This document shows, one piece after another, positions 1 through 57,189 of a DNA stretch of 64,000 bases. The translations under genes and the position numbers were made by a program. Where the stretch lies: positions 682,001 to 746,000 of the forward strand of contig JAWMAR010000545.1 of NCBI GenBank assembly GCA_036785375.1, given 5' to 3'. The notes beneath the pieces were generated by a model. The model was not told the origin of the DNA. It saw nothing but the letters and a program-made list of their open reading frames with translations, and ran no database searches. Each line of letters opens with the position of its first letter. Position 1 is the first letter of the stretch. The DNA is from Leucoraja ocellata. Lineage: Eukaryota.

Positions 1-65
1 TCCACAATTTCTAGAGCCACTTCCTTAAGTACCCTGGGATGCAGACCATCAGGCCCTGGGGATTT
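1..65 (-). mobile_element. CR1-clade LINE ORF2 fragment (runs off window)
   Basis: Minus strand translates KSPGPDGLHPRVLKEVALEIV, the CR1 ORF2 motif upstream of the RT core. Confidence 0.8.
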
Positions 66-1512: not shown

Positions 1513-3613
1513 TATTGCGGTGCTGCTTCTTCCTGCCTACAGGCAGCAATTGAAGAGCGCATTCCCCTGGGGTGAGGACTGTACAGAGCTTGTCGGGGAG
1601 GCAGAGGAACAACTCCAGGACTGTTTAGAGTCTGTAGACTGGGCAATGTTCAGGGACTCGGCAACGGACCTGAATGAATACGCCACAGTCACTACAGACT
1701 TCATAAAGAAATGTGTGGAGGACTGCATCCCAACAAAAACCTTCCAAGTGTTTCCTAACCAGAAGCCTTGGATGAACCATGAGATCCGCACTCCTCTGAA
1801 GTCCAGATCCCAGGCATTCAGGTCTGGAGATACAGAGGTCTACAAGAAGTCCAGATACGACCTTGGTAAGGCCATCAAAAAGGCCAAAATGGACCTGCTC
1901 TAAGCTGGAGGATGAGATGGATATTTGGCAACTGTGGCAGGGCTTAAGTGCCATCACCTCTTACAAGGCGAAATCAGGAGGCAGCTCAAATGTCAGCGAA
2001 GCATCACTCCCTGACGAGCTCAATGCGTTTTATGCAAGCTTTGATAGGGAGAACACTGATGTGCCTTCCCGAACCCCCATTCGCTGTGATGGTATTTCAG
2101 TCACAGTCACAAAGGCCGACGTCAGAAGACCCTTCAGGGGGGTGAACCCTCGGAAAGCGTCTGGACCTGATGGTATACCCGGGCGTGTTCAAAAAACCTG
2201 TGCGGTTTTTATAGGCATTTTCAACATCACACTACTGAGGTCTGAGGTTCCCACCTGCTTTAAAAGGGCATCAATAATACCAGTGCCCAAGAAGAGTAAG
2301 GTGACGTGCCTCAATGACTATCGACCTGTGGCACTAACGCCTGTGGTGATGAAGTGCTTTGAGAGGTTGATTATGGCGCATATCAACTCCTACCTCGATA
2401 AGAACCTAGACCTACTGCAGTTCGCTTACCGCCACAACAGATCAACGGTGGATGCAATCTCACTGGCCCTCCACTCCGCTCTGGACCACTTGGACAACAA
2501 AAACTCATATGTCAGGCTGTTATTCGGCATTTAATACAATCATCCCCTCCAAGCTGGTTACCAAGCTCTCAGATCTGGGTCTCTGCGCATCCCTCTGCAA
2601 TTGGATCCTCGACTTCCTCATCAACAGGCCATAGTCTGTCCGTATTGGTGGAAATGTGTAATCTTCGATAACAATCAGCACGGGAGCACCTCAAGGCTGC
2701 GTGCTCAGCCCCCTGCTTTACTCACTCTATACTCATGACTGCGTGGCCGGATATAGTGCGAACTCCATCATCAAGTTCACCGACGACACCACTGTTGTTG
2801 GATGAATCACAGATGGTGATGATTCAGAGTATAGAAGTGAGATCGACCAATTGACCAAATGGTGCCAGCACAAAAACCTGGCTCTCAACACTAGCAAAAC
2901 CAAGGTACTGATTGTGGACTTTGAAAGGGGTAGGATAGGGACCCGCAATCCCGTTTATATGGTGGAAAGGGTCATGAACTTCAAATTCCTGGGCGTGCAT
3001 ATTTCCGAAGATCTTTCCTGGTCTCAGCACACTGATGCAATCATAAGGAAGGCACATCAGCGCCTCTACTTCCTGAGAAGATTATGGAGAGTTGGTATGT
3101 CAAGGAGGACTCTCTCGAACTTCTACAGGTGCACAGTAGAGAGCATGCTGGCCGGTTGCATCGTGGCTTGGTTCGGCAACTTGAGCGTCCAGGAGCGGAA
3201 AAGGCTGCAAAAAGTTGTAACCACTGCCCAGTCCATCATCGGCTCTGACCTCTCTACCATCGAGGGGATCTATCGCAGTAGCTGCCTCAAAAAGGCTGCT
3301 GACATCATCAAAGACCCACACCACTCATCTCTCCGCTGCCATCAGGTAGAAGGTACAGGAGCCTGAAATCTGCAACATCCAGGTTCAGGAACAGCTTCTT
3401 CTCCACAGCCATCAGGCTATTAAACACAACTTCAAACAAACTCTGAACTATAACAGCCTATTGCACTTTATATATATATATATATATATTCTATGGTATA
3501 TGGACACACTGATCTGTTCTGTATTTATGCCTACAATATTCTATGGTGCTGCAGCAAGCAAGAATTTCATTGTCCTATCTGGGACACATGACAATAAAGT
3601 CTCTTGACTTGAC
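1513..3613 (+). mobile_element. Rex1/Babar-clade LINE, 5'-truncated, frameshifted RT pseudogene
   Basis: ORF pieces 1490-1903, 1863-2534 and 2851-3366 contain [59 protein letters not shown] and KAHQRLYFLRRL. Sequence between them encodes GAPQGCVLSPLLYSLYT and KFTDD. 3' UTR ends gaatttcattgt...acaataaag followed by (cttga)n. Confidence 0.92.
3469..3488. repeat. (TA)n microsatellite in the Rex1 3' UTR
   Basis: Direct reading. Confidence 0.9.
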
Positions 3614-5020
3614 TTCTTCAGAAGTCTGAAGTCTGAAGAAGGTTCTTGACCTGAAACGTCACCCATTTCTTCTCTCCAGAGCCCACTGAGCTAGTCCAGC
3701 ATTTTGTGTCTATCTTCGCAATAAACCAGCATATGAAGTTTCTTGCTTCACAAATTATTCTGTAGACTGGCTTTGTGAACACCTGTGGTGGAATCCTGCG
3801 ACTAAACGTAACAGGTAACATTGCTGTTCATAACCTGTCCCAGACAAGACATGCTATCACTCCGCAATTGGTTACAGAACAGACATGCATTATTAATATG
3901 ATTTGTTATGTGGGCAACCATTACCACACACCACTCACTTCTTGATTAAGAAATCAAGGTGAAAGTTTGACAGAGGACATTTGCACACAAACACACAGCA
4001 TGTTGAATGAAGATTTCCCTCTCCAGGCATTGAACTGTTTAAAAAGGAATGTGTAATCTAGCAGAGAAAGGTACACCAGCCAAAGCATTAAACATGTGTA
4101 CACCAGAATCCCACAGTGTCACTTCAGGGCTGTTCTTTTAATAAAATGAAGAAACTCTGGAGGGATTGATGCCATGACAAACCAGAAAAAAACTCATACT
4201 CAAACAAATAAAGTAATCTAATTCAAAGAAAAATCCACCAGTACGTGATGCAAGCCAAACATTTTTATTGTCATCGGTACGTTCACCGCCAGCCATATAG
4301 GGCGACCCCTCTTGAAAGTGAAGGGGAGCCAGTTACTGCTGCAGTTGGTTTGTTTGCCTGCACAGCTGCCTCACAGGGGACGATGAACTATGACCTGCAT
4401 TTGTGTGCTACTCTGAACTGACTTATCTCATGGAATGGAGATCAATGAATTATTAACAGGACAGTGGTGCCCCCATCTACAGGAAGTGAAAACATGTTGT
4501 GTTTGTACCCAAAGTCCTTATCCTCTGTATCCCGCCCCCTCACCACCAGTCCCCCCCTCGGGTGAAAGTGTCTGCGTTACTTGGCACATGGACCATCTTG
4601 ATTTAGTCTGAACGCAGTAAGATCACATGGCTGTAAAGTTTACAGCAAGAACTGAATAAGAAACATTTGATAAAAGCTTGCCAGACGCATACCAAAAATA
4701 AAAGTTATACAGAGCAGAGGCTGTGTTATGACGGTTCTAAATCTACCATAATCCCCAGAGGAACTTGCCAAATTAAATGCCCCAGTATCCTTCTTCCTTG
4801 TGTCAGTTGTTCCTTCCCATGCTTTATAAGGAGCTGTTTCATCAGATGGATCAAGAACGCTGGGCAAAACTTTCCCATGCCACTATCCCTCAGAATATGT
4901 TCACAGTGCACTGTTTACAATGGACAGCACTAATGGCAGATTTGTTTTAATTTCCACTGCTTTGTGTTTAAAGTTAACTATCACCCACAGGCAGTCTTTT
5001 CATGCCTTATTGTCTGGGTG

Positions 5021-11112: not shown

Positions 11113-11646
11113 AGTCCCACTTGGGTGCCTAATCCGCGTGTTCTAGCGAGTTTGCCCTCGACTCATACTCGCAGCATGGTCGACATGAGGTCATAGGAGG
11201 TCTTCGTAACTCTCCTTCATGCTCGAGAGTGGTCTCCACGTACTCGAGGCCTCAGCTAGGTTCGGCGTTTTCTTTCAATACGTTAAAAAATGCCCGCGAC
11301 TAAAAAAAAGGTCGCCATGGAAAAAATCTATACTTTTTTTACTCGTAGGTTTAGTCGTAGCTGGTCATACTAGGTCGGCATGTTAGTCGTAGGTAATCGA
11401 GGGTAGTCGAAGATAGTCGGTGGTAATCGTAAATAGTCTTCATCATAGTCGGAGGGAGGTCGAAGGAGATCGAAGGAGGTCGGCTTCACTCTCCACTATT
11501 CGGTGTCCAATTTTCCCGAAGTTAGTCGAAGCTAGTCGAAGCTGGTCTTCAACATGGTTGAAGGAGGTTGAAGGAGGTCTTCAACATGTCATTTTTTCAA
11601 ACAATTCTAAACTCGCCAATTAGATCGCCCAAGTGGGACAGCCCCT
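11113..11646. mobile_element. PIF/Harbinger-type MITE, type A
   Basis: Right TIR gtgggacagcccct; left TIR partly deleted (ag..tcccacttggg); TTA on both flanks. Internal sequence homologous to 51558-52096. Confidence 0.8.
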
Positions 11647-12929: not shown

Positions 12930-14030
12930 CCTTGGAGAATGCATTAGATGCACGACAAAGACATTGCAATACACCAAGGAGCGAAAAAGTTGACAGTTAC
13001 CGGTTCTTTACGCAGATGCAGGAGCAGGGGGAAAAAAAAACTTTTGATACTTTCCTGACAGAGCTTTTAGCCAATAATCACCGTTTTGCAGGTTTGAAAG
13101 ACTCACTCATTAGCGATAGGGTTATTTGTGAAATCCAAGAGACCAACTTGTGGAGGCAGCCACTAAGAGAGACAGAGTTAACTCTGCAAGAGTGTATATG
13201 CACTTGCCGAGCTTCCGAGCTATTCGGCACCGACAGAAATGTGGGGCAGACATTGCAGAGGGTGAAAATGACCAAAAGTGAATACTCACGAGATAAATCT
13301 ACTTCACAACATTAAAGCCTGGACATCTAGTGTTATTTCGATTTGACCTGGGAGCAAAATGTGATGTTCTACTGGAGCCAACCATCATTCTCCTTGTGAT
13401 GCTGTTAAATTTTTTGTCAATGTGCAAGGTGCGGGAGAGTGGCACAGGGGTAGAGTTGCGGCCTTACAGTGCCAAGGATCCAGGTTCGATCCTGACTATG
13501 GGTGCTGTCTGTATGGAGTTTATAGGTTCTCCCTGTGATCACATGGGTTTTCTCTGGGTGCTCCAATTTCCTCCCACATTCCAAAGACGTTAAGGTTTGT
13601 AGGTTAATTTGCCTCTATAAATTGCCATTAGCGTGTAGGATAGAACAACTGCGAATGGGTGACTCAGTGGGCTGAAGGTCCTGTTTCCACCATGTGTCTC
13701 TAAGGTAAACTAAACTAGTTAGACTAAAGGGTGTTTGTTTGGATGGATTTCGTCATGTAGACATCGATGAGGAGAGACATCTATGTTAGAGAAGACCACC
13801 ATTTGCAATCTAGACCAAAGATCATGTGCAGAAAAGAAACTTGTAATTCTGTAAAAAGGAACCACCCATTGGAAATACTTCATTCTCATTGAGTCCCAGA
13901 TGACCTCTGGGCAAAAGTCAGATCTAAAGAAGGAACATATCTGGTGATACCTTATTATTCTTCAAATTGTTCCAAGATAGACCGTGTAGAGAACAATCAC
14001 TCACTGATGGCCTTTTGCAAGTCCAAAGGA
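12930..14030 (+). mobile_element. Highly degraded Ty3/Gypsy gag-pol relic interrupted by a SINE
   Basis: ORF 12932-13315 YRFFTQMQ..TFDTFLTEL..LKDSLISDRVIC..RETELTLQECICTCRASE is Gypsy gag-like. FRFDLGAKCDVL (~13335) is protease-like; DGFRHVDIDEE (~13742) is RT-like; VENNHSLMAFCK (~13986) resembles the RNase H TDH motif. Confidence 0.65.
13440..13716 (+). mobile_element. HE1-type V-SINE
   Basis: gtagagttgcggccttacagtgcca..ggttcgatcctgac (B box), V-domain gggttttctctgggtgctcc, tail ctaaactaaac. Confidence 0.85.
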
Positions 14031-16641: not shown

Positions 16642-16859
16642 TGTAGCACCACCTGCTGGTGCTCGCAGGTAGTCGAACCCTGCGGTCGGGTGACTCTGGG
16701 GAGGGGTTGTGTTTCGCGAGCTTTCTGGGCGCTGCCCCTTCAGTCACTCTGGACCACCGTTGTTGTCTGGGTCTGTTTATTGGTTGTGTTGAGATACTTC
16801 GTTAGTTTGTTTTGCTAATAAACTCGTTTGAACAATCGACTCTCGTCTCATCCGCCAAA
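16642..16859 (+). repeat. 5' LTR
   Basis: tgtagc...aataaa...catccgccaaa; direct repeat of 18308-18541. Confidence 0.9.
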
Positions 16860-16860
16860 T

Positions 16861-16874
16861 TGGTGACCCCGACG
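16861..16874 (+). promoter_or_regulatory. Primer binding site complementary to the tRNA-Trp 3' end
   Basis: tggtgaccccgacg is the reverse complement of CGUCGGGGUCACCA, the vertebrate tRNA-Trp(CCA) 3' end. Confidence 0.8.
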
Positions 16875-16879
16875 CGTCC

Positions 16880-17725
16880 ATGCGGAGATTGGACGACTGC
16901 ATGCGGGTTAATTACCTTCCCGCTGCCGCTCCCAACGCCCATCAAAACGCAGTCAAACTCAAACTGCCCATGTTTTGGCCCGATCGACCTCAGGTGTGGT
17001 TCGCCCATGTTGAGGCACAGTTTCATCCGCACCACATTGTTGCGGACGAGACAAGATACTTCCACGTGGTGGGAGCTCTGCTGCAGGAGTCAGCCTCCCT
17101 TCTACTGCCTTATCTTCGGGACCCATCTGCAACCGGTAAGTACGACGGCTTCAAGGCCCTCCTTTTGCACACCTTATGGTGCCGCTGGGACCGTGCTGCC
17201 CGCATCCTTCACATGGATGGTTTGGGAGATCGGCGGCTGTCCGTCCTCATGGCCAGGATGCTCGCGTTCATGGATGGCCACCGTCCATGCCTGTTGTTTG
17301 AACAGGGGTTTCTGAAGCCGATGCCCGACGATATCCGTCTAATGCTCGCCGGCGCGGTCTTCAACGATCCCCAGCGAGCTGATGAGCTCTGGATGACTCG
17401 GCATCAGGCCATCTGCGCCATTGACCACGTGCCCGCACCAACGCGCCTTTCACCTCGGCTACTCCACGAGGAGGGCACGCCATCGTCGTCCATCGAAGAA
17501 CCACAGCAGCGTCCCGAGACTCGCGGTAGGCACCGTTGGTGTTACTATCACCTCCGCTTTGGCGCGAGGCTCGACGCTGACACCATCCCTGCGCGTTTCA
17601 GGGAAATGCCTCAGCCAATCGTCTGTATAGACCCCGCCATTCCATCCGTTTCGGCTCTCGACCACAACGTCGACTACGGCGAGCTGGCAGCAGCGCAGCA
17701 GGCTGATGCCATTATGGCGGACTAA
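16880..17725 (+). pseudogene. Gypsy gag fused by deletion to the pol RNaseH-integrase linker
   Basis: AVKLKLPMFWPDRPQVWFAHVEAQF...WCYYHLRFG. A frameshift follows (shifted frame reads EARR*HHPCAFQGNASANRL), then DYGELAAAQQAD from pol. Confidence 0.85.
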
Positions 17726-17758
17726 CGCACCACCGGGACTGGCGGTGCGGCCGGTGTC

Positions 17759-18135
17759 ATGGTCCTGTGCAACATCTCCACAGGACACGCCCGTCCGGTC
17801 ATTCCTGTTAGTTGGAGATGGCGGGTTTTCGACACGGTCCATGGCCTGGCCCACCCGTCCATACGTGCGACGTCCACCCTGTTGGCTGCCAAGTTCGTCT
17901 GGCACGGTCTCTGTAAGCAGGTGGCTGCCTGGGCCCGCGCCTGTATTCCGTGTCAGACCTCCAAGGTCCAGCGACACGTACGGCCTCCGGTGCAGGATTT
18001 CGCTGTCCCCGAGGGCAGGTCCCTGCATGTGCATGTGGACCTCATGGGTCCCTTGCCACATTCCCAAGGTGCCACACACCTGCTCACCATCGTGGACCGT
18101 TTCACGAGGTGGCCGGAGGCGATTCCACTTTCGCC
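17759..18135 (+). pseudogene. Gypsy integrase N-terminus (HHCC zinc finger and start of DDE core), truncated
   Basis: VHGLAHP..ACIPCQTSK..HVHVDLMGPLP..LLTIVDRFTRWPEAIPL; the rest of the core is absent. Confidence 0.88.
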
Positions 18136-18307
18136 CGCACTGAGTACACCTGTTTCCAGCTTTGTTCCGCCGGCCCCAATTGTTACGACCGACCCTGTTT
18201 TGCCGGCCCCTACTGTTACGCCCGTCCCGCCTTCAAGAACCACGCGTTCCGGAAATATCATCCGGGTCCCTGCTCGGTTCCGTAACTCTGGTTCTGGGGG
18301 GGGGCCC

Positions 18308-18541
18308 TGTAGCGGCACCTGCTGGGGCTCGCAGGTAGTCGAACCCTGCGGTCGGGTGCGTCGGACATGTGACTCTAGGGAGGGGTTGTGTTTTGTGCGC
18401 TTTCTGGGCAATGCCCCTTCAGTTGCTCTGGACCACCGTTGTGGCTGGATCTGTTTATTGGTTGTGTTGAGATACTTCGTCAGTTTACTTGTTTTGCTAA
18501 TAAATTCATTTGAACAATCGACTCTCGTCTCATCCGCCAAA
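18308..18541 (+). repeat. 3' LTR preceded by a G-run polypurine tract
   Basis: G-run at 18296-18304, then ccc and tgtagc...catccgccaaa. Confidence 0.9.
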
Positions 18542-18767
18542 GTAGCATTTAAAAGGACAGGCATATGGGCGTGCAGGGAGTTGAGTGATATGGACCATGT
18601 GCATGCAGAGGAGATTAGTTTAATTTGGCCTCTTGTTCGGCAAGAATATTGTAGGATGAAGAGCATGCTCCTGTACTGTCCTGCTCTGGGTTCCATGTTC
18701 TATTTCCGCCAACATGTCATGTTTAAAGTTTTCGACTGCAGACTTTGCCATGATAGACGTAGCAATA

Positions 18768-18994
18768 GAGAGACACAAAAAGCTGCAGTAACTTAGCAGG
18801 ACAGGCAGCATCTCTGGAAAGAAGGAACAGGGTGATGTTTCGGGTCGAGACTCTTCTTAGGGTCTGAAGAAGGGTCTCGAACTGAAATGTCGCCCATTCC
18901 TTCTCTCCAGAGATGCTGTGTGTCCCGCTGAGTTAGTCCAGGTTTTTGTGTCTTCCTTCGGTTAAAACCAGCATCTGCAGTTCCTTCCTACACC
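18768..18994. mobile_element. Palindromic Penelope-derived hammerhead element
   Basis: Inverted arms around gggtctgaagaagggtctcgaactgaaatgtc; TSD cgtagcaata at 18758-18767 and 18999-19008. Confidence 0.85.
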
Positions 18995-24495: not shown

Positions 24496-24682
24496 TGTGT
24501 AGAAAGGAACTGCATATGCTGATCTAAACCGAAGATAGACACAAAATGTTGGAGTAACACAATGGGACAAGTGGCATCTCTGGTGAGAAGGAACGGGTGA
24601 CGTTTTGGGTTGAGACCCTTCTTCAGACTTCTCCAGAGATGCTGCCTGTCCCACTGAGTTACTCCAACATTTTGTGTCTACC
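24496..24682. mobile_element. Penelope-derived hammerhead element, asymmetric palindrome
   Basis: Minus strand ctgaagaagggtctcaacccaaaacgtcacc; inverted short arm 24630-24680; taaggaga on both flanks. Confidence 0.8.
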
Positions 24683-27412
24683 TAAGGAGAAAATTATCGT
24701 TGTGATAGGATGCCAGACCTTTAAAATAGTAATAGATATTTTCCATATAGATCAATTAATTTAGGAAAATGTGCCAAAACATGAGTGTTACTGGACAAAA
24801 TCTGACATCAGTCCATCGAAAGCAGGTGACAAAAAGTCAAGACAACGAGGTACGTTAAAGTAGCATCTTTAACAGGGAGAAATAGAGAGCTGGAGAGGTT
24901 AGGGAAGGAATTCCAGAGGTATTGGCCCTGAAGTGGAAGTCACAGCTGTGAATGATGAAACAGACGAGTAACTCAAATTTGGAGGAATATAGAAACATTT
25001 GCTTGGATGTATTAGATTTCTAAAGCATTTCATTCAGATTTCTTCTAAGGAGAGACAACTTGCTCCTATACTCTCATAAAAATGATTTGAGGTTCGTTTT
25101 TTTAGTTTAGTTTCGTGATACAGCGAGGAAACAGACTCTTTGGTCCGCTAAGTCTGCACCGACCAGTGATCTCCGCTCTTTTTATTCTTTTAATTTATTT
25201 TTTCTTTGCTTATTTTTTTCTGGTGAGCAAGTGTATACTTTTATTTGAATGAAGTGTTTCAGCATGGTGCTGAAATTAATGAACGGTTCCATTCTACACC
25301 AGAAATGAAGCTCAGTTCTACCACTGATCACAAAATCGATGGGTTAGACTAACGTGGTCAAAAGCACCAGGTCGTTTGGAAATGTACAAATCACATAATT
25401 AACTTGACAATTAGGATTCTGCCATCTTCATGACAATACGATTGGGAAAAGAGACTTACCTTTTGGGGAGAATGTGAGGAAAAAGATGAATGCTCGCTTA
25501 AGAAAGGCCACAGAGGAACAACATTCAGTTTATGAGGAGCTTATGTAAAAGCAAGCCATGCTTGCTCCAGCATGGGTCTAAAGCTCAGTGCTGTATTGTT
25601 TTGGCCTCATGCCAGCTTATAACCTGCAGATAGGCTCTCTCCTGAAGACCGGTTATGAAGTGGAACATCCTCTACTATAGAGGAATGATGGCTGGTATGG
25701 GTGTTACGGAAAGAACAGCCATGGTGGAGGAAAGAAAATCAATAACAATAGAGTGTGCTACTTATACTGTGTGGCTCAATAACAGAAGGTTGAAGGTTCA
25801 GTAATGTGATTCTCCTCAAAGGTGTTATTTTGATCTTTTGCATTTCCAGTGCATTCTGTTGCTTTGGCTTCGCGGATAATGGCATTAAACACCTCTGTAG
25901 CTGCGTGGAGATGTAAAATTTGCCTGAAACTACATCTCACATTTAAAATGAAGTGGATACATTAAAACTGAATTTAGAAGTTATCTACAGAACTTTAATG
26001 ATAATTTTAGAGGCAAAAGACACAAATGATTTGAACTCCAATTTTCAGGTCATTGTGGAATCCATTTGCTAAGTGACAACTTTAAACTTATTTTTTTAAT
26101 GAATTTACTGTTTCTTCCAAGTTGTTTTCAACTAATAAACACACAGCGCCGTCCATTAGTGATATTCATCCAGAATTAAATAATAGATTTCAACAACGGC
26201 GGTTAAATATTTGTTTCAGTTAATAAAATGATTATTATCAAAGGAAGATTTGACAATTACCACATTGATCGCTTATATGCTGATTATATGCCAATTTTAT
26301 AAAGGTGTAGAAATTATTCTTATTTTATTAATGGAAACATAGGTTTGAAAGCTCCAAAGGGCATTTAATATTCAGAATAACTGGCAAAACTACAAAAAGA
26401 TGGTTGATATTCGTAAGCTTTTGATTCCATTTTGTGTGTTCTTATGATTGTCAGATTCTTACTGCATGTTTTGCATTTATTTCTCTGAAGTTTACTGAGA
26501 CAGTCCGGATAAATGTTTCCGCTTTTCCTCTTGATTTGCTGTAAGATCACTTAACAATTGACCTTTTAAAAGAGCTCTTTACATGCTAACAGCTAACTAT
26601 CAGAGATTTCAGCTTAGCTACTGTGTTGCGTCGGCCTCTCGATGTTTTTTTCTGTGCTTCTTATGTACAAAGTATGCCCAAAACTATTGTCCTCTCCCCA
26701 TTTCTGCTGATTTGATGCGAAGATTACATTGTTGTCAGCAGGGGGAATGTCCACCAGTCTGGCCTCAGAGACACAACTGGCTACAGGAGGTCACCGGAGG
26801 CTTGCTAGTGAGTGCACCAATTATCTCCAAGCTGCTTTGAAGAGTCTGTCAGTTTCTCATATTACTGCAAACTTAAAAAGGGCATCATTATCGATCAGAG
26901 CTGGGAATCAAGTGGGTTCAAATAATCCTAAAACTGAGTAAACCCTTTTTTTTCCTACTTGCCTTGGTGCTTAAGAAGAACAAGCCACAGCAGTAAGCTA
27001 CAGTAGAAGGGGAACTGACTGAAGCTTGTTAATAGATGCACACTGTGCGGCATGCTGAACAATTGTTTAATATATGAAAAGGTCTTTGCAGGCTTCACAA
27101 AGGTGTTTTATTCCAACTGCATTGAAGCACAGTCTGCTATGACGTTACTAAATGTCTGACTTTGAATATCAAACAGAGAATCTAAACCATACTTTCAGCA
27201 CTGAAGTACGACTTGGATTGATAAGAGCTTTGCGAGATGAATCTAAACACTTTGCTTATCTGGCATAATGTCTTTGACATATTTCTGCCAACCTCGGCTT
27301 TGGAAACCTATGTGTTCATTTTGTACAATTACTTCATTCGTATTTACATGAGGCTCCCTTTGTTTGATTTCTAACTCAACCCTGGCTAAGGATACTTGTT
27401 AAAACATTCTGC

Positions 27413-31540: not shown

Positions 31541-32554
31541 GAGATGTGTGGCCGATATTTTATGTTACACAGAGTGTGGTTGGTGCCTGGAATGCACTAC
31601 AAGTGGTGGTTGTGGAGGAAGCAGGTACATTAATGGTATTGAAGAGGCTTTTAGATCATCACATGTATATGCAGGAAATGAAGGGCTACGGATCATGTAC
31701 AGGCAGAAGGGATTAGTTTACTTTGGCATCATGTACAACACAGAAATTGTGGACTAAAGGGCCTGTTCCTCTGCTGCACTGTTTGGTGTTCTCTGTTCAA
31801 TCTCAGGAATTTTAGCTCCTGGGCAATTATTTGCTCATCTCCTTAATCACACTGTCTTATTTATTTATTCACAGAAGATTAGGCTTTAGTCTGCTCAAGA
31901 CTCTTGATGCAGATGAGATTTGTAGTATATTAGAAAACAAGCCAAAGGCTCAATTCAAATCAAGCTGATGCCAGATGACCATGGCAGGGCCTGAATACCA
32001 TCATGGGCTACAAGCTGAAATCGGGAGCAATCTCTGGCAATTACACATTTCCACCAAATAAGCTTGATGCAATTTCCCCTAGTTTTGTCCAGGCAAACAA
32101 AATTTCACCAACCAAGACCCTGCCCTATCTTCCCTCGCTGGCTTTGTGCCGTGCCGTGCATCTTGGTGGCAGATGCCAGATCAGCTTCTGCGTTGGTAAT
32201 CTCTCGGAAAGCTGCCGGCCAGGTTGGGGCACCTGGGCTGGATCTGAGATCCTGCATCATTCAATTGGCCCCAGTATTCCCCAAGATGTAGATTCAAGCA
32301 AGTCCAGATGCTGGTTTTCAAAAAAAGACACAAAGTGGCTGGAGTAATTCAACGGGTCAGGTAGGGTCATTAGATTAGATTAGAATCTTTATTTGCCACG
32401 CAACCAGGGTTGGTGGTATTTGGGTTCGGTACATGATGGTACACTGCTTTTGTTACATACCACTAATAACACAGATCACCGTAATAAAGTGCATCCATAC
32501 CACATCATACCACATACCACATGTTTCGGGTCAGGATCCTTCTTCGGACTGAAG

Positions 32555-34185
32555 TTCTGAACGGTGTTGGCCAACATCTTAATTCTCTCACTTCCAACAA
32601 TTTACTGTCCCCATCTACTTCAAGGAAACCACCGTCATTCCAGCCCCGAGCAAAATGAACTGCCTCAATGACTACTGACCAGTAGCTCTATGACTTTATG
32701 GTTCGACCATCGAACCTAAGTAAATGCTTTGAACGGTTGGTAATGGGCCATATGTTCGCCAGTCTTCCTGGCAATAGAGACCACTTGCAATTTGAATATA
32801 AGAAAAATAGGTCCACAGAAGCCACCATCTCCCGTGCGCTAGATTCAGTTCGACATTACCCTGACAATAACATCTACGTCAGGATGCCACTCCTTGACCA
32901 CAGCTCAACTTTCAACAGCATCATACCAAATAAGCTTATTTCTAAACTAAAGGACCTGTCCCACGAGCATGCGACTTGCATGCGGCAAGCGCGACCTAAA
33001 AGGCCGATCCCACCAGCATGCGCCTGCATGTGGCAAGCGCGACCTAACGTGGTCGCTTGAGCCGTACGGCATGCGGCAAGCGCGACCAAACCAGAAGCGG
33101 GAGCCGCGCGGAGGTCGAGTGAGTGACACGGCGTATAGGCGGCTGCGGGCTGGCAGGCCATTGCCGCACGGAATTCTTAAACACGGTCAGTTTTTCGAGC
33201 CCCGCGCGATGTCGGCACCAGTTCCGCACAACTCCATACGGCTCCGGCGATCGAAGTGGGTTCGGCCCCGCGAGGCCGTACGATAGGTCGCGCTTGCCGC
33301 ATGCAGGCGCATGCTGGTGGGACCGGCCCTTTAGGTCGCGCTTGCCGCATGCAGGTCGCATGCCCGTGGGACAGGCCCTTTATGGTTCTTCCCTTGGAGC
33401 CCACATCTGCAACTGGCTTTTGTACTTCCTGACTGGTAGACCTCAGTCAGTCAGAATGTTGAGAACATTCTTTCCAGCCTGATCCTCAATGCTGGTACTC
33501 CTTAGGATTGTGGGCTCGGTTCCATGCCATATTCCTTGATCATTTATGATTGTTTGGCTAAGTACAGCACCAACTTGATCTTTAAATTCACCAACAATGC
33601 CACTGTTGTTGGCCAGGTTAGCAACAACAGTGAGACGGAGCACCGGAAAGAGATGAAGAACCTCGTGTCATGGTGTCTGAACACCACAACCACCTGAACT
33701 TGCAGAGAGTGGTGAACACAACCCAGTCCATCATTGGCTCGTCCCATCCTTCCGTCTAGTCCAGCGTCATGGTGTTGTGTATCAGGAAGGCTGGAAATAT
33801 CACCAGGGATGCTTCCCACTGTGGACATTCCCATTTTACTCTTCTACTTTCTGGGAGAAGATGCAGAAGCATTAAGGCCTGGATGTCCAGACTGAGGCAT
33901 TTGCCCCACTCCCAACAGACACCTGAACCAATCATCTCTTTCACACTCTCCTCCTGGAGGGGCCACCGTGTACTCCTACCTCAACCTCATTTGGTTATTC
34001 TGGTATTGCACTTTTGTATTTTGATACTACCTTTGATTGCACTATAATCTTTGCAATCCTCTGCCATTTTGAACTTGTTGTGTATTTATTGTGAACTTAC
34101 AATATTTATTCTTTAATCTATGGGCTTCATGAGAACTAGGAATTTCATTGCCCCCTGGTGTATTTGAAAATAAGCTAATCTGACC
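32555..34185 (+). mobile_element. Degraded Rex1/Babar LINE interrupted by a MITE
   Basis: KCFERLVMGH..LQFEYKKNRST..YVRMPLLDHSSTFNSIIPNKLISKL | ICNWLLYFLTGRPQSVR; 3' UTR ends gaatttcattg...aataagctaatctga. Confidence 0.8.
32951..33379. mobile_element. PIF/Harbinger-type MITE, type C (long palindrome)
   Basis: TIRs aggacctgtcccacgagcatgcgac / gtcgcatgcccgtgggacaggccct, with the inversion extending ~95 bp. Flanks TAA (32948-32950) and TTA (33380-33382). Confidence 0.88.
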
Positions 34186-50412: not shown

Positions 50413-50583
50413 CAGTAAAACACAAAGTGCTGGAGTAACTCAGCAGGTTACGGAGCATCTGCAGAAGGAATAGATCCGCAACACTTCTGGTCGGGATCCT
50501 TCCTCAGTTGTCCTGCTGAGTTACTCCATATCTTTGTGTTTTCCTCAAGATTCCAGCATCTGTAATTCCTTGCATCTCCAGAC
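50413..50583. mobile_element. Penelope-derived palindromic element
   Basis: Inverted arms cacaaagtgctggagtaactcagcagg / cctgctgagttactcca..ctttgtg; TSD gccatactt (50404-50412, 50584-50592). Confidence 0.75.
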
Positions 50584-51519: not shown

Positions 51520-52341
51520 GGGTGGCACGTTGGCGTAGCGGTAGAATTGCTGCTTTAAGGGCCTGTCCCACTGCGGCAACATAATTGGCAAGTTTAGAAG
51601 AGTTTTCCCTCGACTCATACTTGCAGCATGGTCAACATGAGGTCGTAAGAGGTCTTTGTAACTCTCCTTCATGCTCCAGAGTAGTCCCCGTGTTTTGAGG
51701 CCTCTGCTAGGTTGCAACGTATTTTTCAACATGCTGAAAAATGCCCGCGAGTAAAAAAAGGTCGCCATGGAAAAAAATCTATTTTTTTTTTACTCGTAGG
51801 TTTAGTCGAAGTAGGTCGTAGTAGGTCAGCATGTTAGTCGCAGGTAATCGAGGGTAGTCAAAGGTAATCTAAGGTAGTCGAAGGTAGTCATAGATAGTCT
51901 TCAACATAGTTGAAGGGAGGTCGAAGGAGGTCGTCTTCACTCTCCACTATTCGGTGTCCAATTTTCCCAAAGCTAGTCGAAGGTCGTGTTCTACATAGTC
52001 GAAGGAGGTCGAGGAGGTCTTCAACATGAGACTTTTTCAAACTCTCCTAAACTGTTCTAAACTTGCCAATTAGGTCACCGCAGTGGGACAGGCCCTTAAC
52101 AGCGCCAGAGACCCGGGTTTGATCCTCACTATGAGTGCTTATCTGTACAAAGTTTGAACGTTCTCCATGTGACCTGTATGGGTTTTCTCTGCGTTCCTCC
52201 CACAATCCAAAGATATACAGGTTTGCAGGTTAATTGGCTTGGTATAATTGTAAATTGTCCCTAGTGTGTGTAGGAAAAGTGTTAGTGTGCAGGGATCGCC
52301 GGACAGCACGGACTTGGTGGGCCGAAGGGCCTGTTTCTGCA
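51520..52341 (+). mobile_element. HE1-type V-SINE with a MITE inserted in the tRNA-like head
   Basis: gggtggcacgttggcgtagcggtagaattgctgct|MITE|cagcgccagagacccgggtttgatcc...ctaaactaaac. Confidence 0.88.
51558..52096. mobile_element. PIF/Harbinger-type MITE, type A
   Basis: TIRs agggcctgtcccactgcgg / ccgcagtgggacaggccct; flanks TTA (51555-51557) and TAA (52097-52099). Confidence 0.9.
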
Positions 52342-53392: not shown

Positions 53393-53665
53393 TGGAAAAA
53401 GGCCCTTCGGTTAACTGAGTCCTTGCCGACCAATGTTCTATGTTATCCCACATTCAAATCCACTCCCTACACACTTGGGCCAACTTACAGAGGCCGATTA
53501 ACCTACAAACTCACACACCTTTGGGATGTGCGAGGAAACCAGAGTACCCGGACAAAATCACAGGGAGAATGGACAAACTCCAAACAGACAGCACCCGGGG
53601 TCAGGATCGAACCTGGGTCCCTGGTGTTGTGAAGCAGCAGCTCTACCATCTGTGCCACTGTGTCA
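53393..53665 (-). mobile_element. HE1-type V-SINE
   Basis: Minus-strand head with B box ggttcgatcctgacc; V-domain ggtactctggtttcctcgcac. Confidence 0.8.
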
Positions 53666-54089
53666 CCTGCTGTCTTAAAAGGAAAACAGGAATGTTGTTC
53701 TCAAAGTAGATATAGTGATATACATGCAAGTCTGAGTCATTTCATGGAGGCTTGTGAGAAGATTATATTTGGAAACAATAGTTTGGAAGAAATTCTACAA
53801 AGAAATGACATTGGTGATAGTAACGTTTGTAGGTTTTATTTACAGGTTGTCTTGAGGATCGTCATAACAATTAATAGTCTCAAGGTTCCAGAGAGGGTAG
53901 CATAGATAGTACTACACATATCACTGATTGTATCAGACGTAGTGCTATAATCCTATTAAAATTGCAAATAGCCCAATATTCCCCCTCTAAGTAAATATCA
54001 TTGCCCTGGACACAGAATGAATCTGTAAATGAAGATAGCAAAATGTTAGAAGATTGAATAATCCCCAAAACAAATAATCCAATGACTAA

Positions 54090-54330
54090 AGAATTTCTTT
54101 AGTCAGAGGGTGATGAATACGTGGAATTTATTGCCACAGAAGGCTGTGGAGGTCAAGCCAATGGATATTTTTAAGGCAGTGATAGATAGATTCTTGATTA
54201 GTACATTTCAGGGGCTATGGGGAGAAGGCAAGAGAATGGGATTGAGAGGGAAAGATAAATCAGCCATGATTGAATGTCAGAGTAGACTTGATGGGCCGAA
54301 TGACCTAATTCTGCTTCTATCACTTATGAA
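54090..54330 (+). mobile_element. CR1 3' end
   Basis: ttctttagtcagagggtgatgaatacgtggaat...gatgggccgaatgacctaattctgc. Confidence 0.8.
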
Positions 54331-54551
54331 CATGTGGAAGCCCAATGCAAGCAGATTGAAAAGTAAATATTGGTAGTTTATTTTGGTACCGTCTATGTGC
54401 CGATAAATATAATCACAACACGTGGCTAAAAGAGAATTTTAAAAAAAAATGCACAACAAAAATATTATGTATCGTTGAAGCTAATGCTGGAAAACCTCAG
54501 AGAGAGAGATAGACATCCCAGTAATCGCTTTTCAATCCTCTCTATTCATGA

Positions 54552-54813
54552 TAGACACAAAATACTGGAGTAACTCAGTGGGACAAGCAGCACCTCTGGA
54601 GAGAAGGAATGGGTGACGTTTCGGGTCTAGACCCTTCTTCGGAGTCTGAAGATAGGTCTCGGCCCAAAACGTCACCATTACAGTCTGAAGAAGGGTCTCA
54701 ACCCGAAACGTCACCTGCTCCTTCTCTCCAGAGATGCTGCCTGTCCCGCTGAGTTACTCCAGCATTTTGTGTCTATCTTTGGTTTAAACTAGCATCTGCG
54801 GTTCCTTTCTACA
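54552..54813. mobile_element. Palindromic Penelope-derived element with three hammerhead cores
   Basis: One minus core (~54613-54643) and two tandem plus cores (54646-54676, 54685-54715); TSD cctctctattcatga (54537-54551) / cctctctattaatga (54814-54828). Confidence 0.88.
54685..54715 (+). ncRNA. Minimal type-I hammerhead ribozyme motif (core intact)
   Basis: CUGAAGA-A-GGGU(CUCA)ACCC-GAAA-CG-UC^ACC; loop-less palindromic stem III (ACGU). Confidence 0.75.
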
Positions 54814-57189
54814 CCTCTCTATTAATGAGCAGATCTACCATCCACTAACATCATCAATTTGTGTACAAAGGATGCTTCGAGTGGTGCATGTATGTGGATG
54901 CTATCAGCATCCTATCAACTTAGGGTAATTTCTAACATTAAATGTCAAATATTTATTTTCTACTGCAGTGAGTGACTGGAGTAACGTTCCTACGAGCTGA
55001 AGATAAATAATGATGGCCACATTCTTTTGAGCCTGCTACAAATCAGGTCCACAATGGTATTTTTAATTATTTCTATCAAAGAGGACAGCTTCTAATGCCA
55101 GGTCTTCCTTCTCCACATACTGAACACACCATTTCTCACAATAATTAAGCAGTGTCTAGATACACATTTGAAAAGCAATGCAAAGAAAGCTACAAACCAA
55201 GTTCATTGGGTCCAAGACCTGTTACGTCACCAATCCATGTTCTCCCAAGATGCTGCCTGACCTGCAGAGTTACTCCAGCACTTTGCATCATTTTTGTAAA
55301 CCAACATTTGCAGTTTCTCATTTGGATTAGAATGGATGGGCTCCAGATGGTCAACAATGGAGTATTGGGAACCAAAGAGCTTGTTCTATGTGGCATTACC
55401 ACATGAATCCGTGAAATGGGATCCTATTCAATTCAATTAAATTCAACTTTATTGTCATTGCACAAATACGAGTATAGGTACAACAAAATGCAGTTTAGCG
55501 TCTGGTCATGGTCATAGTGCAAGATAGTAGAAGTAAAAATAAAAATACAAAATAAGCATACAATAAAAATATGTCTTTGATTCTGAAGTATTGTTCATAG
55601 CTCAACAAAGAAAGTGCGCACCTCAGGTGGAATCTGTGTGTTCTCTCCCGGACAGATACTTGGGAAGCACTTAATTGTTTTAAAGAAATGCTAACTAATT
55701 TTGGCAGCATAAATTCCCATGTAGAGTGTGTTCAATTATCTCACTCAGAGTGGAGGATTGGCCCAGAGTTGTAAAGAAAGTCTGGAAACACTTGGGTCTT
55801 CAAACTCATAATTGAATGTGTACATGGTGCGCTTGTGGAAGAAACGGCATTGATATTCCGAAAGATAACCCAGACTATTACTTCAAATTAAACTGTGGGG
55901 AAGTAGAACCAGCTGATGAATGTAGTGGGTGGCTGGGGCTCATCTCTCTGCTTCTTCCAGTCACAGAGCAACCACCCAGACAGTGCAGCAAAGTCCCTGA
56001 ACTCATTTACAAAGGACAGTCCTGAGCTACAAAATGTTTATGACCATCCTTGCTGCATGAATGAAAAAAATATGCCAATGGCTTTCTCCGTTCATGATCA
56101 TGATGTTAAGCCCACCTTTCCAGTGTGCGAGCGATCATAAGCATCACAGATCCATACCTCCTACTGCAGGAAATGAGTTCCTGTAGTTTGCTTGAAGCAG
56201 GCCGTTAGCTCTGTATACTGTAAATATGCTACCTCCGGATTAATTCTACTGATCAACTAATAACGATGATTAACTGCATCTCAGATATAAGCATTGTATC
56301 AATATATCGTGAAATAGAATCAAAATTTAAATAATAACAGAAAATATGTCACTATGGCTTACTTAGTGCAACAATAAAAACCAATACAACAACAATCCCA
56401 AAACTTGGAATGTACACCTCCGAGGTACAAAATACTCTGGTGAAATCAAATATTCATGGAATTCTGACTCATTCCAACTTGGCAAGGCAGAGATGCACCG
56501 GATAAAGCTTGATACAAAGCATCTGAATATCTATTCTCATGCCTGAGACTTGGCAAGTAGAAGCGTATGAAAAATTACTTTCAGCATTGTCAACGCGGGG
56601 TCAGATCAGCCGAGAAGCAGCCCATTGCCTGGACTCGACACAAGTGGTGCCTGGCCACCCACACCTTCCCGTTTCAGATCCGAAACAGTGAACGAGCTGA
56701 CGCTCCCTATCCCAGTACCAAGGAGGAGTCCCGAGAGGCAGAGCCAGGCATGCCTCAGGCAGTGGAAAAGTGTGGAACAGTCTGACAACCTTTGACAGCT
56801 CCCCACCGTCAAAGGTTTCTGCGCTGCTTTTAAATGAGAGAGAACTAATATTATTCAAGTAGTTGCAAAATTTTAAAAGAAAAAAAAAATCAAAATGAAT
56901 TTTAACCTCCAATGAGGTAAATACATTTAATTGAAATATTAAAATGAAAAATAATAATCTAAAAGCTTAGGCTTTTTAACAACCCCATTTAAATGAAGGT
57001 TACCATTTATATGTTGCTCTCCCTGGGGTAAAGCTGAGGTCGGAATCAAAACTCATCCGGACTCACTCTAGTTTACACCGAGTCTACAGGAGGTTATACT
57101 AGCTGTGTCTGACCTCCACATCATTTCATAGTGAGCTTGGCAATGGATGGAGAGCCTAACCCCGTTCCCAATTCTCCGACCAGTCTGAC

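Follow-up and report, generated by a model that had tools for sequence, protein, structure and literature searches.

The locus at 54537–54828 of the window (the whole 64-kb stretch of DNA that was analysed) carries a palindromic element enclosed by two TSD copies, 54537–54551 on the left and 54814–54828 on the right, which are identical at 14 of 15 positions (chance approximately 5e-4 after the 11,875 placements tried). From left to right, the element is made of a tail-less inverted copy of a repeat on the minus strand (54550–54643, repeat positions 2–95), which shares the last 2 nt of the left TSD, a 39-nt extra unit on the plus strand (54644–54682) and a direct copy on the plus strand (54683–54814, repeat positions 1–132), whose end shares the first base of the right TSD. 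The extra unit corresponds to the start of the repeat, with a hammerhead core (core 1, 54646–54673) and a few linker bases; core 2 (54685–54712) lies in the direct copy and an antisense minimal core (54615–54642, minus strand, C3 at 54642 and C17 at 54615) in the inverted one. The inverted arms (54550–54643 and 54684–54777) are 94 nt long and 89% complementary, and the direct arm alone carries an optional 3' extension of approximately 36–37 nt (54779–54814, plus strand), the 'tail' of Penelope-like elements (PLEs), loose ends being found behind 54778–54779 in four runs. The fold computed for the element reaches -174.3 kcal/mol (z = -18.4) and none of 200 shuffles was equally stable. The palindrome with its 15-bp TSD and the three hammerhead cores, one antisense and two sense in tandem 39 nt apart with a loop-less ACGU stem III, had been described in the initial annotation, and this description is confirmed.

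The plus cores begin at 54646 and 54685 and have their C17 at positions 54673 and 54712, respectively; the minus core begins at 54642, and the ACGU palindrome forming stem III is retained in all three. Core 2 has the complete invariant set (CUGANGA/GAAA/UH) and, alone among those of the 14 core-covering arms, shows no change at any of the 16 checked positions; the set is broken by G12>A in core 1 and by U4>C in the minus core. The extra nucleotide after A9 and the G10.1-C11.1 pair are present in core 2 and in the minus core. The change in the GAAA of core 1 noticed earlier is present (G12>A, 54666), but it is one of four differences from the window majority, the others being A9b>U (54653), G10.1>A (54654), by which the conserved G10.1-C11.1 pair becomes an A.C mismatch, and a stem II change (54662). 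Stem I has 2 contiguous bp in every plus-core pairing and 1 bp in the minus core. The relation to the minimal type I hammerheads of Penelope pseudo-LTRs, also put forward in that annotation, is supported: the cores are of the kind described in PMC4209133, palindromic stem III included; it is against this source that the loop-less minimal cores were recognised by eye. At the gathering score, the 64-kb window has no Rfam match, and within 53500–56000 none of the hammerhead families is matched even at E<=10; no array was reported at the element by Tandem Repeats Finder. Three Rfam matches at E 6.8–8.9 are at chance level (mir-4427, 16.6 bits against a cut-off of 86) and were rejected.

An assembly artefact at the junction is unlikely, since a 95-nt contig of run X8, from another organism, covers 54611–54705 with 2 letters differing and spans the extra unit, and contigs of run X14, of a more distant organism label, cross both flank junctions. 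The insertion is found in runs of other organism labels and therefore predates the split of these relatives.

The window is rich in repeats, which we take to resemble those of cartilaginous fishes. Pfam matches were obtained for 4 of the 82 stop-to-stop ORFs of at least 90 aa (RVT_1, ALKBH8_N, DUF7041 and Integrase_H2C2), none of them a PLE gene adjoining the repeat, and no PLE reverse transcriptase (RT) or GIY-YIG gene tied to the repeat is found among all 82. The only RT match, a fragment at 1800–2534, looks unrelated; it belongs to a broken LINE fragment (1800–3366, plus strand) in which RVT_1 (E 7e-7) precedes ALKBH8_N (E 4e-11), a pairing that suggests a Rex1/Babar-type element. LTR retrotransposon fragments with the DUF7041 and Integrase_H2C2 matches lie at 16832–18796 (plus strand), and several copies of a tRNA-like-headed SINE and of LINE-like 3' ends at 13431, 15126, 19072, 61223 and elsewhere. 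A MITE-like structure at 32948–33382 has inverted arms of 103 nt that are 93% complementary and separated by 229 nt, the right one containing a tandem duplication of 48 nt, and an element of degenerate 10-nt units is present in two copies (11348–11596 and 51799–52005).

The repeat that forms the element is approximately 135 nt long and very abundant: in three related DNA runs, 252,977, 285,870 and 349,704 contigs match 54400–55000 at 88% likeness. With the direct arm as a BLAST query, 24 rows were obtained in the 64-kb window, of which six (20820, 32364, 50460, 50509, 51205 and 55241) were dropped as short or diverged; the 18 rows of the same subfamily, together with the middle unit, give the 19 arms analysed here, those of the element included. 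The 3' ends fall at repeat positions 92–96 in 7 of 18 arms, at 131–132 in another 7 and elsewhere in 4, and the gap of approximately 37 nt between the two end positions corresponds to the length of the PLE tail. At all three two-armed loci of the subfamily (18767–18993, 24497–24683 and 54550–54814), one arm ends at 95–96 and the other at 132, so that the tail sits on one arm and the inverted arm has none. The first two of these loci are head-to-head insertions with flanking repeats of 10 and 8 bp, respectively, best-of-many TSD calls of 7–8 bp at other loci being possibly due to chance. A more diverged variant of the repeat at 50420–50575 is also a head-to-head insertion, with a 9-bp flanking repeat.

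At the 5' side, arm starts, which were entered by hand from the alignments, lie within -2..8 of the repeat, at the 5' edge of the core, for 13 of 19 arms (for example at 1013, 3631, 24628, 40464, 52800 and 54683); 3 arms extend upstream, 3 begin further in, and none of the 19 arms in the window starts at the ribozyme cut site. The longest upstream extension is approximately 70 nt. The three long copies (534, 29112 and 57337) have a polypyrimidine tract upstream of the core, with CAG before the core in one of the three, and the common start lies just after this tract, which resembles the 3' end of an intron; in D. virilis Penelope, a spliceosomal intron has its end on the 5' side of helix I. 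An RNA start, a splice boundary and an RT stop are the candidate causes of the accumulation of 5' ends at the core edge. The pile of loose ends at 54681 was not counted as proof of 5' truncation, as the upstream family sequence is absent from the reference and longer copies detach there too.

The joints observed in the run data connect the inverted arm (54621–54634) directly to one plus core (54681–54684) in 13 of the 15 best-supported cases, and the palindrome is thus the ordinary fold-back form of the family. Among these 15 joints (2040 more exist, and the counts are saturated) we found neither a go-back joint for the doubled core nor an empty target site; the read depth at core 1 does not count tandem cores, because reads go to the best fit. 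Among the 18 core-like sites of the window, the tandem pair described here is the only one. At 3612–3640, the same three-part pattern is made up of an inverted stub, a restart of 8 nt, which is too short for a core, and a full copy after them; short stubs of this inverted kind, in which the first bases of the core are briefly restarted at the junction, occur both there and at 32523–32560. An exact 25-nt core pattern had no match in viral, metagenome or prokaryote genome contigs, as expected for an animal repeat.

We propose that the element is very probably a single old and severely 5'-truncated PLE insertion, for which only pseudo-LTR (pLTR) end sequence was copied, a putative family assignment drawn from non-coding architecture. 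The typical Penelope structure, a direct pLTR with an adjacent inverted pLTR, a tail on one end and a TSD, is given in PMC3846280 (Arkhipova et al.), and the same insertion structure appears in PMC8557442 (Craig et al.). EN+ PLE insertion units (Penelope/Poseidon, Neptune; Pen2a_Av) have an inverted 5'-truncated copy adjoining a direct copy, a one-end tail of 30–40 nt and a TSD, and all these features are present here, with the TSD at 14/15; strong 5' truncation and a hammerhead in the terminal repeat are also common to both. The differences from units of the Pen2a_Av type are that no ORF is left here and that the middle direct copy has just 39 nt. The palindrome is the standard PLE layout (PMC3846280, PMC8557442) and not a special two-strand design. 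A literature search returned no specific description of this family or of a genomic double core at 39 nt, Repbase/Dfam and the supplements of papers, which lie outside its scope, being places that may contain one.

The comparison of the CUGANGA/GAAA positions with the flanking arm, suggested at the outset as a check, was made in the 16 other arms. At non-CpG positions, the core is less variable, with 7/129 cells off majority against 95/919 in the arm (Fisher p = 0.08), a difference that leans towards the initial annotation and would fit selection on the ribozyme of master elements but is not significant; at CpG positions, the counts are 24/80 for the core and 9/44 for the arm (p = 0.29). The inserted copies, on the other hand, decay: one of the 14 core-covering arms has a fully intact core where approximately 1.7 are expected under neutral decay. 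That the intact core should be core 2, and that ACGU is kept in all three cores, is likewise not significant on these counts. At 54705, G12>A is carried by 943 of 4527 RNA reads and by approximately 14–16% of the contig depth. The arms of the element are approximately 6% off the window majority (6/94 for the inverted and 8/132 for the direct copy), compared with 5.5–22% for other copies, and the decay of the three cores since insertion has followed that of the family at large.

A cis dimer is formed through pairing between the two ACGU palindromes, and each catalytic strand then serves the cut site of the other core, that of core 1 acting at 54712 (half A) and that of core 2 at 54673 (half B). 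Half A has G12A and the broken G10.1-C11.1 pair, and the bulged 5-bp helix I is possible solely for this half, with its dead core. Since G12A slows cleavage from >500-fold in minimal to ~10^6-fold in full-length hammerheads, according to PMC2553840, site 54712 should be nearly dead. In the fold of the whole element, the CUGANGA of core 2 has a P(unpaired) of 0.00 at 7/7 positions, and the minus core is paired as well, with P(unpaired) <= 0.01 at 5/7 core positions. A read-through transcript is accordingly predicted to fold into a hairpin of approximately 94 bp in which the cores would be hidden, so that the locus most probably does not act as a ribozyme. It should be kept in mind that equilibrium folding ignores help by proteins, which the anole ribozyme needs according to PMC11167929. 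One poly(A) RNA run of a relative (X22) had no pile of read starts or ends at either cut site or elsewhere, with 15,037 of 7,335,232 records matching; this is weak evidence, as it covers approximately 6% of one run, from another organism and with strandedness unknown. A search of sequencing runs gave no RNA run containing the sequence, which does not count as evidence. Mate directions of the X22 reads are about equal, 97% of the reads continue into unlike sequence, and there is no depth over the unique flanks (54463–54525 and 54841–55000); this signal shows read-through of the whole family and not expression of the locus of the element.

Concerning the origin of the three-part layout, the endonuclease of the element would nick both target strands approximately 15 nt apart, and one nick would prime reverse transcription at the far (tail) start site, giving the direct arm, whose synthesis would break off where that of most copies does, at the 5' border of the hammerhead core. 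A second engagement of the polymerase, a few bases beyond the cut site on an uncleaved template, could then have copied the core again and produced the 39-nt unit; that the template was uncleaved is indicated by the few bases by which this unit extends beyond the cut site. The inverted tail-less arm would come from the other nick or from a fold-back, and the two arms would be joined head to head and repaired, leaving the TSD. The order of priming, the template switching and the re-initiation of the RT at the junction as the source of the extra core are parts of this scheme that we infer, and the extra core has the appearance of a single copying error and not of a functional double ribozyme. 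The two adjacent RT start sites and the priming on both strands have their match in the anole Poseidon, in which, according to PMC11167929 (Frangieh et al.), both target strands are cut and extended, two adjacent internal RT start sites bound the tail, insertion uses uncleaved RNA, ribozyme cleavage needs protein and no RNA-seq ends are reported at the cut site.

The same order of parts could derive from a PLE insertion that was originally longer (inverted pLTR, direct pLTR, ORF, direct pLTR and tail) with a deleted interior, the first 39 nt of the 5' pLTR being left beside a piece of the 3' end. This is the inverted-direct-direct+tail order of Pen2a_Av in PMC3846280; however, the 5' edge at which the direct arm begins is shared by 12 other truncated arms, which points to a stop of reverse transcription and not to a random deletion end, no ORF sequence is left over and the join has <=1 nt of microhomology, making such a deletion improbable. 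The functional outcome would be unchanged, that is, none. The initial annotation had gone in another direction and saw in the tandem pair the arrangement of a cis double hammerhead and in the palindrome a way of placing a core on transcripts from either strand. The topology does fit a dimer and a minus core does exist, but core 1 has G12A and G10.1A, stem I has 2 bp, the minus core is single and paired, with U4C and a 1-bp stem I, and the two halves together cost +58.2 kcal/mol within the element and, when the inverted arm is left out, +15.3 to +18.0. A working cis double hammerhead at the locus is thus not supported. That a palindrome was selected as such, its symmetry giving cleavage from either strand, is highly improbable: besides the topology, ACGU in 3/3 cores and an insertion common to runs of three organism labels (X1, X8 and X14) would speak for it, but an old neutral insertion, too, should be common to close relatives, and the divergence of the arms lies within the range of the other copies.

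The slip of copying that we favor could nevertheless have left an accidental ribozyme, the catalytic strand of core 2 acting on the GUC of core 1 and cutting slowly at 54673 in transcripts without the upstream arm. Half B has all invariant bases and can adopt a closed type III-like fold in which all three stems pair (stem III as ACGU/ACGU with 4 bp, stem II with 4 bp and stem I with 2 bp). Relative to the free ensemble, this fold costs only +3.7 kcal/mol for the 53-mer alone and +5.9 to +8.2 for pieces of 83–121 nt that lack the inverted arm, and a 2-bp helix I is also recorded for the D. virilis hammerhead in PMC4209133. On the plus strand, however, the inverted arm is transcribed first, and with it the cost rises to +31.5 kcal/mol in the whole element and to +31.3 to +31.4 in prefixes ending just after core 2. 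Moreover, no promoter is known within the element, the linker is no better than random (30–32% of 500 random 7-nt loops do equally well), PLE minimal hammerheads are weak even as intact dimers (PMC4209133), 8 of 9 tested Xenopus dimers gave no product (10.64898/2026.07.22.740005) and read ends do not pile up in X22. We therefore give little credence to slow cleavage of this kind, and slightly less to the view that template re-initiation would have turned a motif otherwise in need of a partner, in a single event, into a self-contained cis-cleaving hammerhead with its cut at 54673.

By its non-coding features, the element agrees with a truncated EN+ PLE insertion and behaves like one. The metazoan PLE minimal type I hammerheads described in PMC4209133 (Cervera and De la Pena 2014) have low activity even as dimers and share with the present cores the CUGANGA/GAAA motifs, the extra nucleotide after A9, the G10.1-C11.1 pair and the loop-less palindromic stem III; motif pairs 100–700 bp apart on opposite strands are also noted there. 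In contrast, helix II has 4–5 bp here and 7–8 bp there, helix I has 2 bp in the plus cores against 4–5 bp, which is closer to the D. virilis variant, and two of the three cores are damaged here. The Poseidon of Anolis carolinensis (PMC11167929) shares the two 3' ends separated by a tail shortly downstream of the hammerhead and has likewise copies that do not start at the cut site and no RNA-seq reads ending there, whereas its ORF begins in stem II, where the present repeat has no start codon and no ORF was found. The non-LTR retrozymes, as described in PMC7229834 and bioRxiv 10.64898/2026.07.22.740005, are also non-coding, PLE-related and provided with tandem type I hammerheads, but as head-to-tail whole monomers (family consensus 51–972 bp), each with a complete hammerhead, whereas the present inverted repeat encloses a single incomplete unit of 39 nt, whose core is broken. 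The retrozyme definition in 10.64898/2026.07.22.740005 requires two or more units in direct tandem succession, all of them with a complete hammerhead, and 1 of the 9 Xenopus dimers tested there was cleaved. By this definition, the element, with its partial 39-nt unit carrying G12A and no tandem array, is not a non-LTR retrozyme.

As it stands, the element is one decayed copy of a very common repeat in a known PLE layout and matters little in itself. Its interest is that of a natural record of PLE insertion, with two start sites, one per arm, and with stops at the edge of the hammerhead and not at the cut site. In the case where half B would cleave, a duplication of 39 nt could make a monomer-inactive PLE hammerhead active in cis, which would bear on the proposed PLE origin of retrozymes; if this were true and short-spaced double cores were to recur genome-wide, such duplications may represent a seed stage for retrozyme-like arrays.
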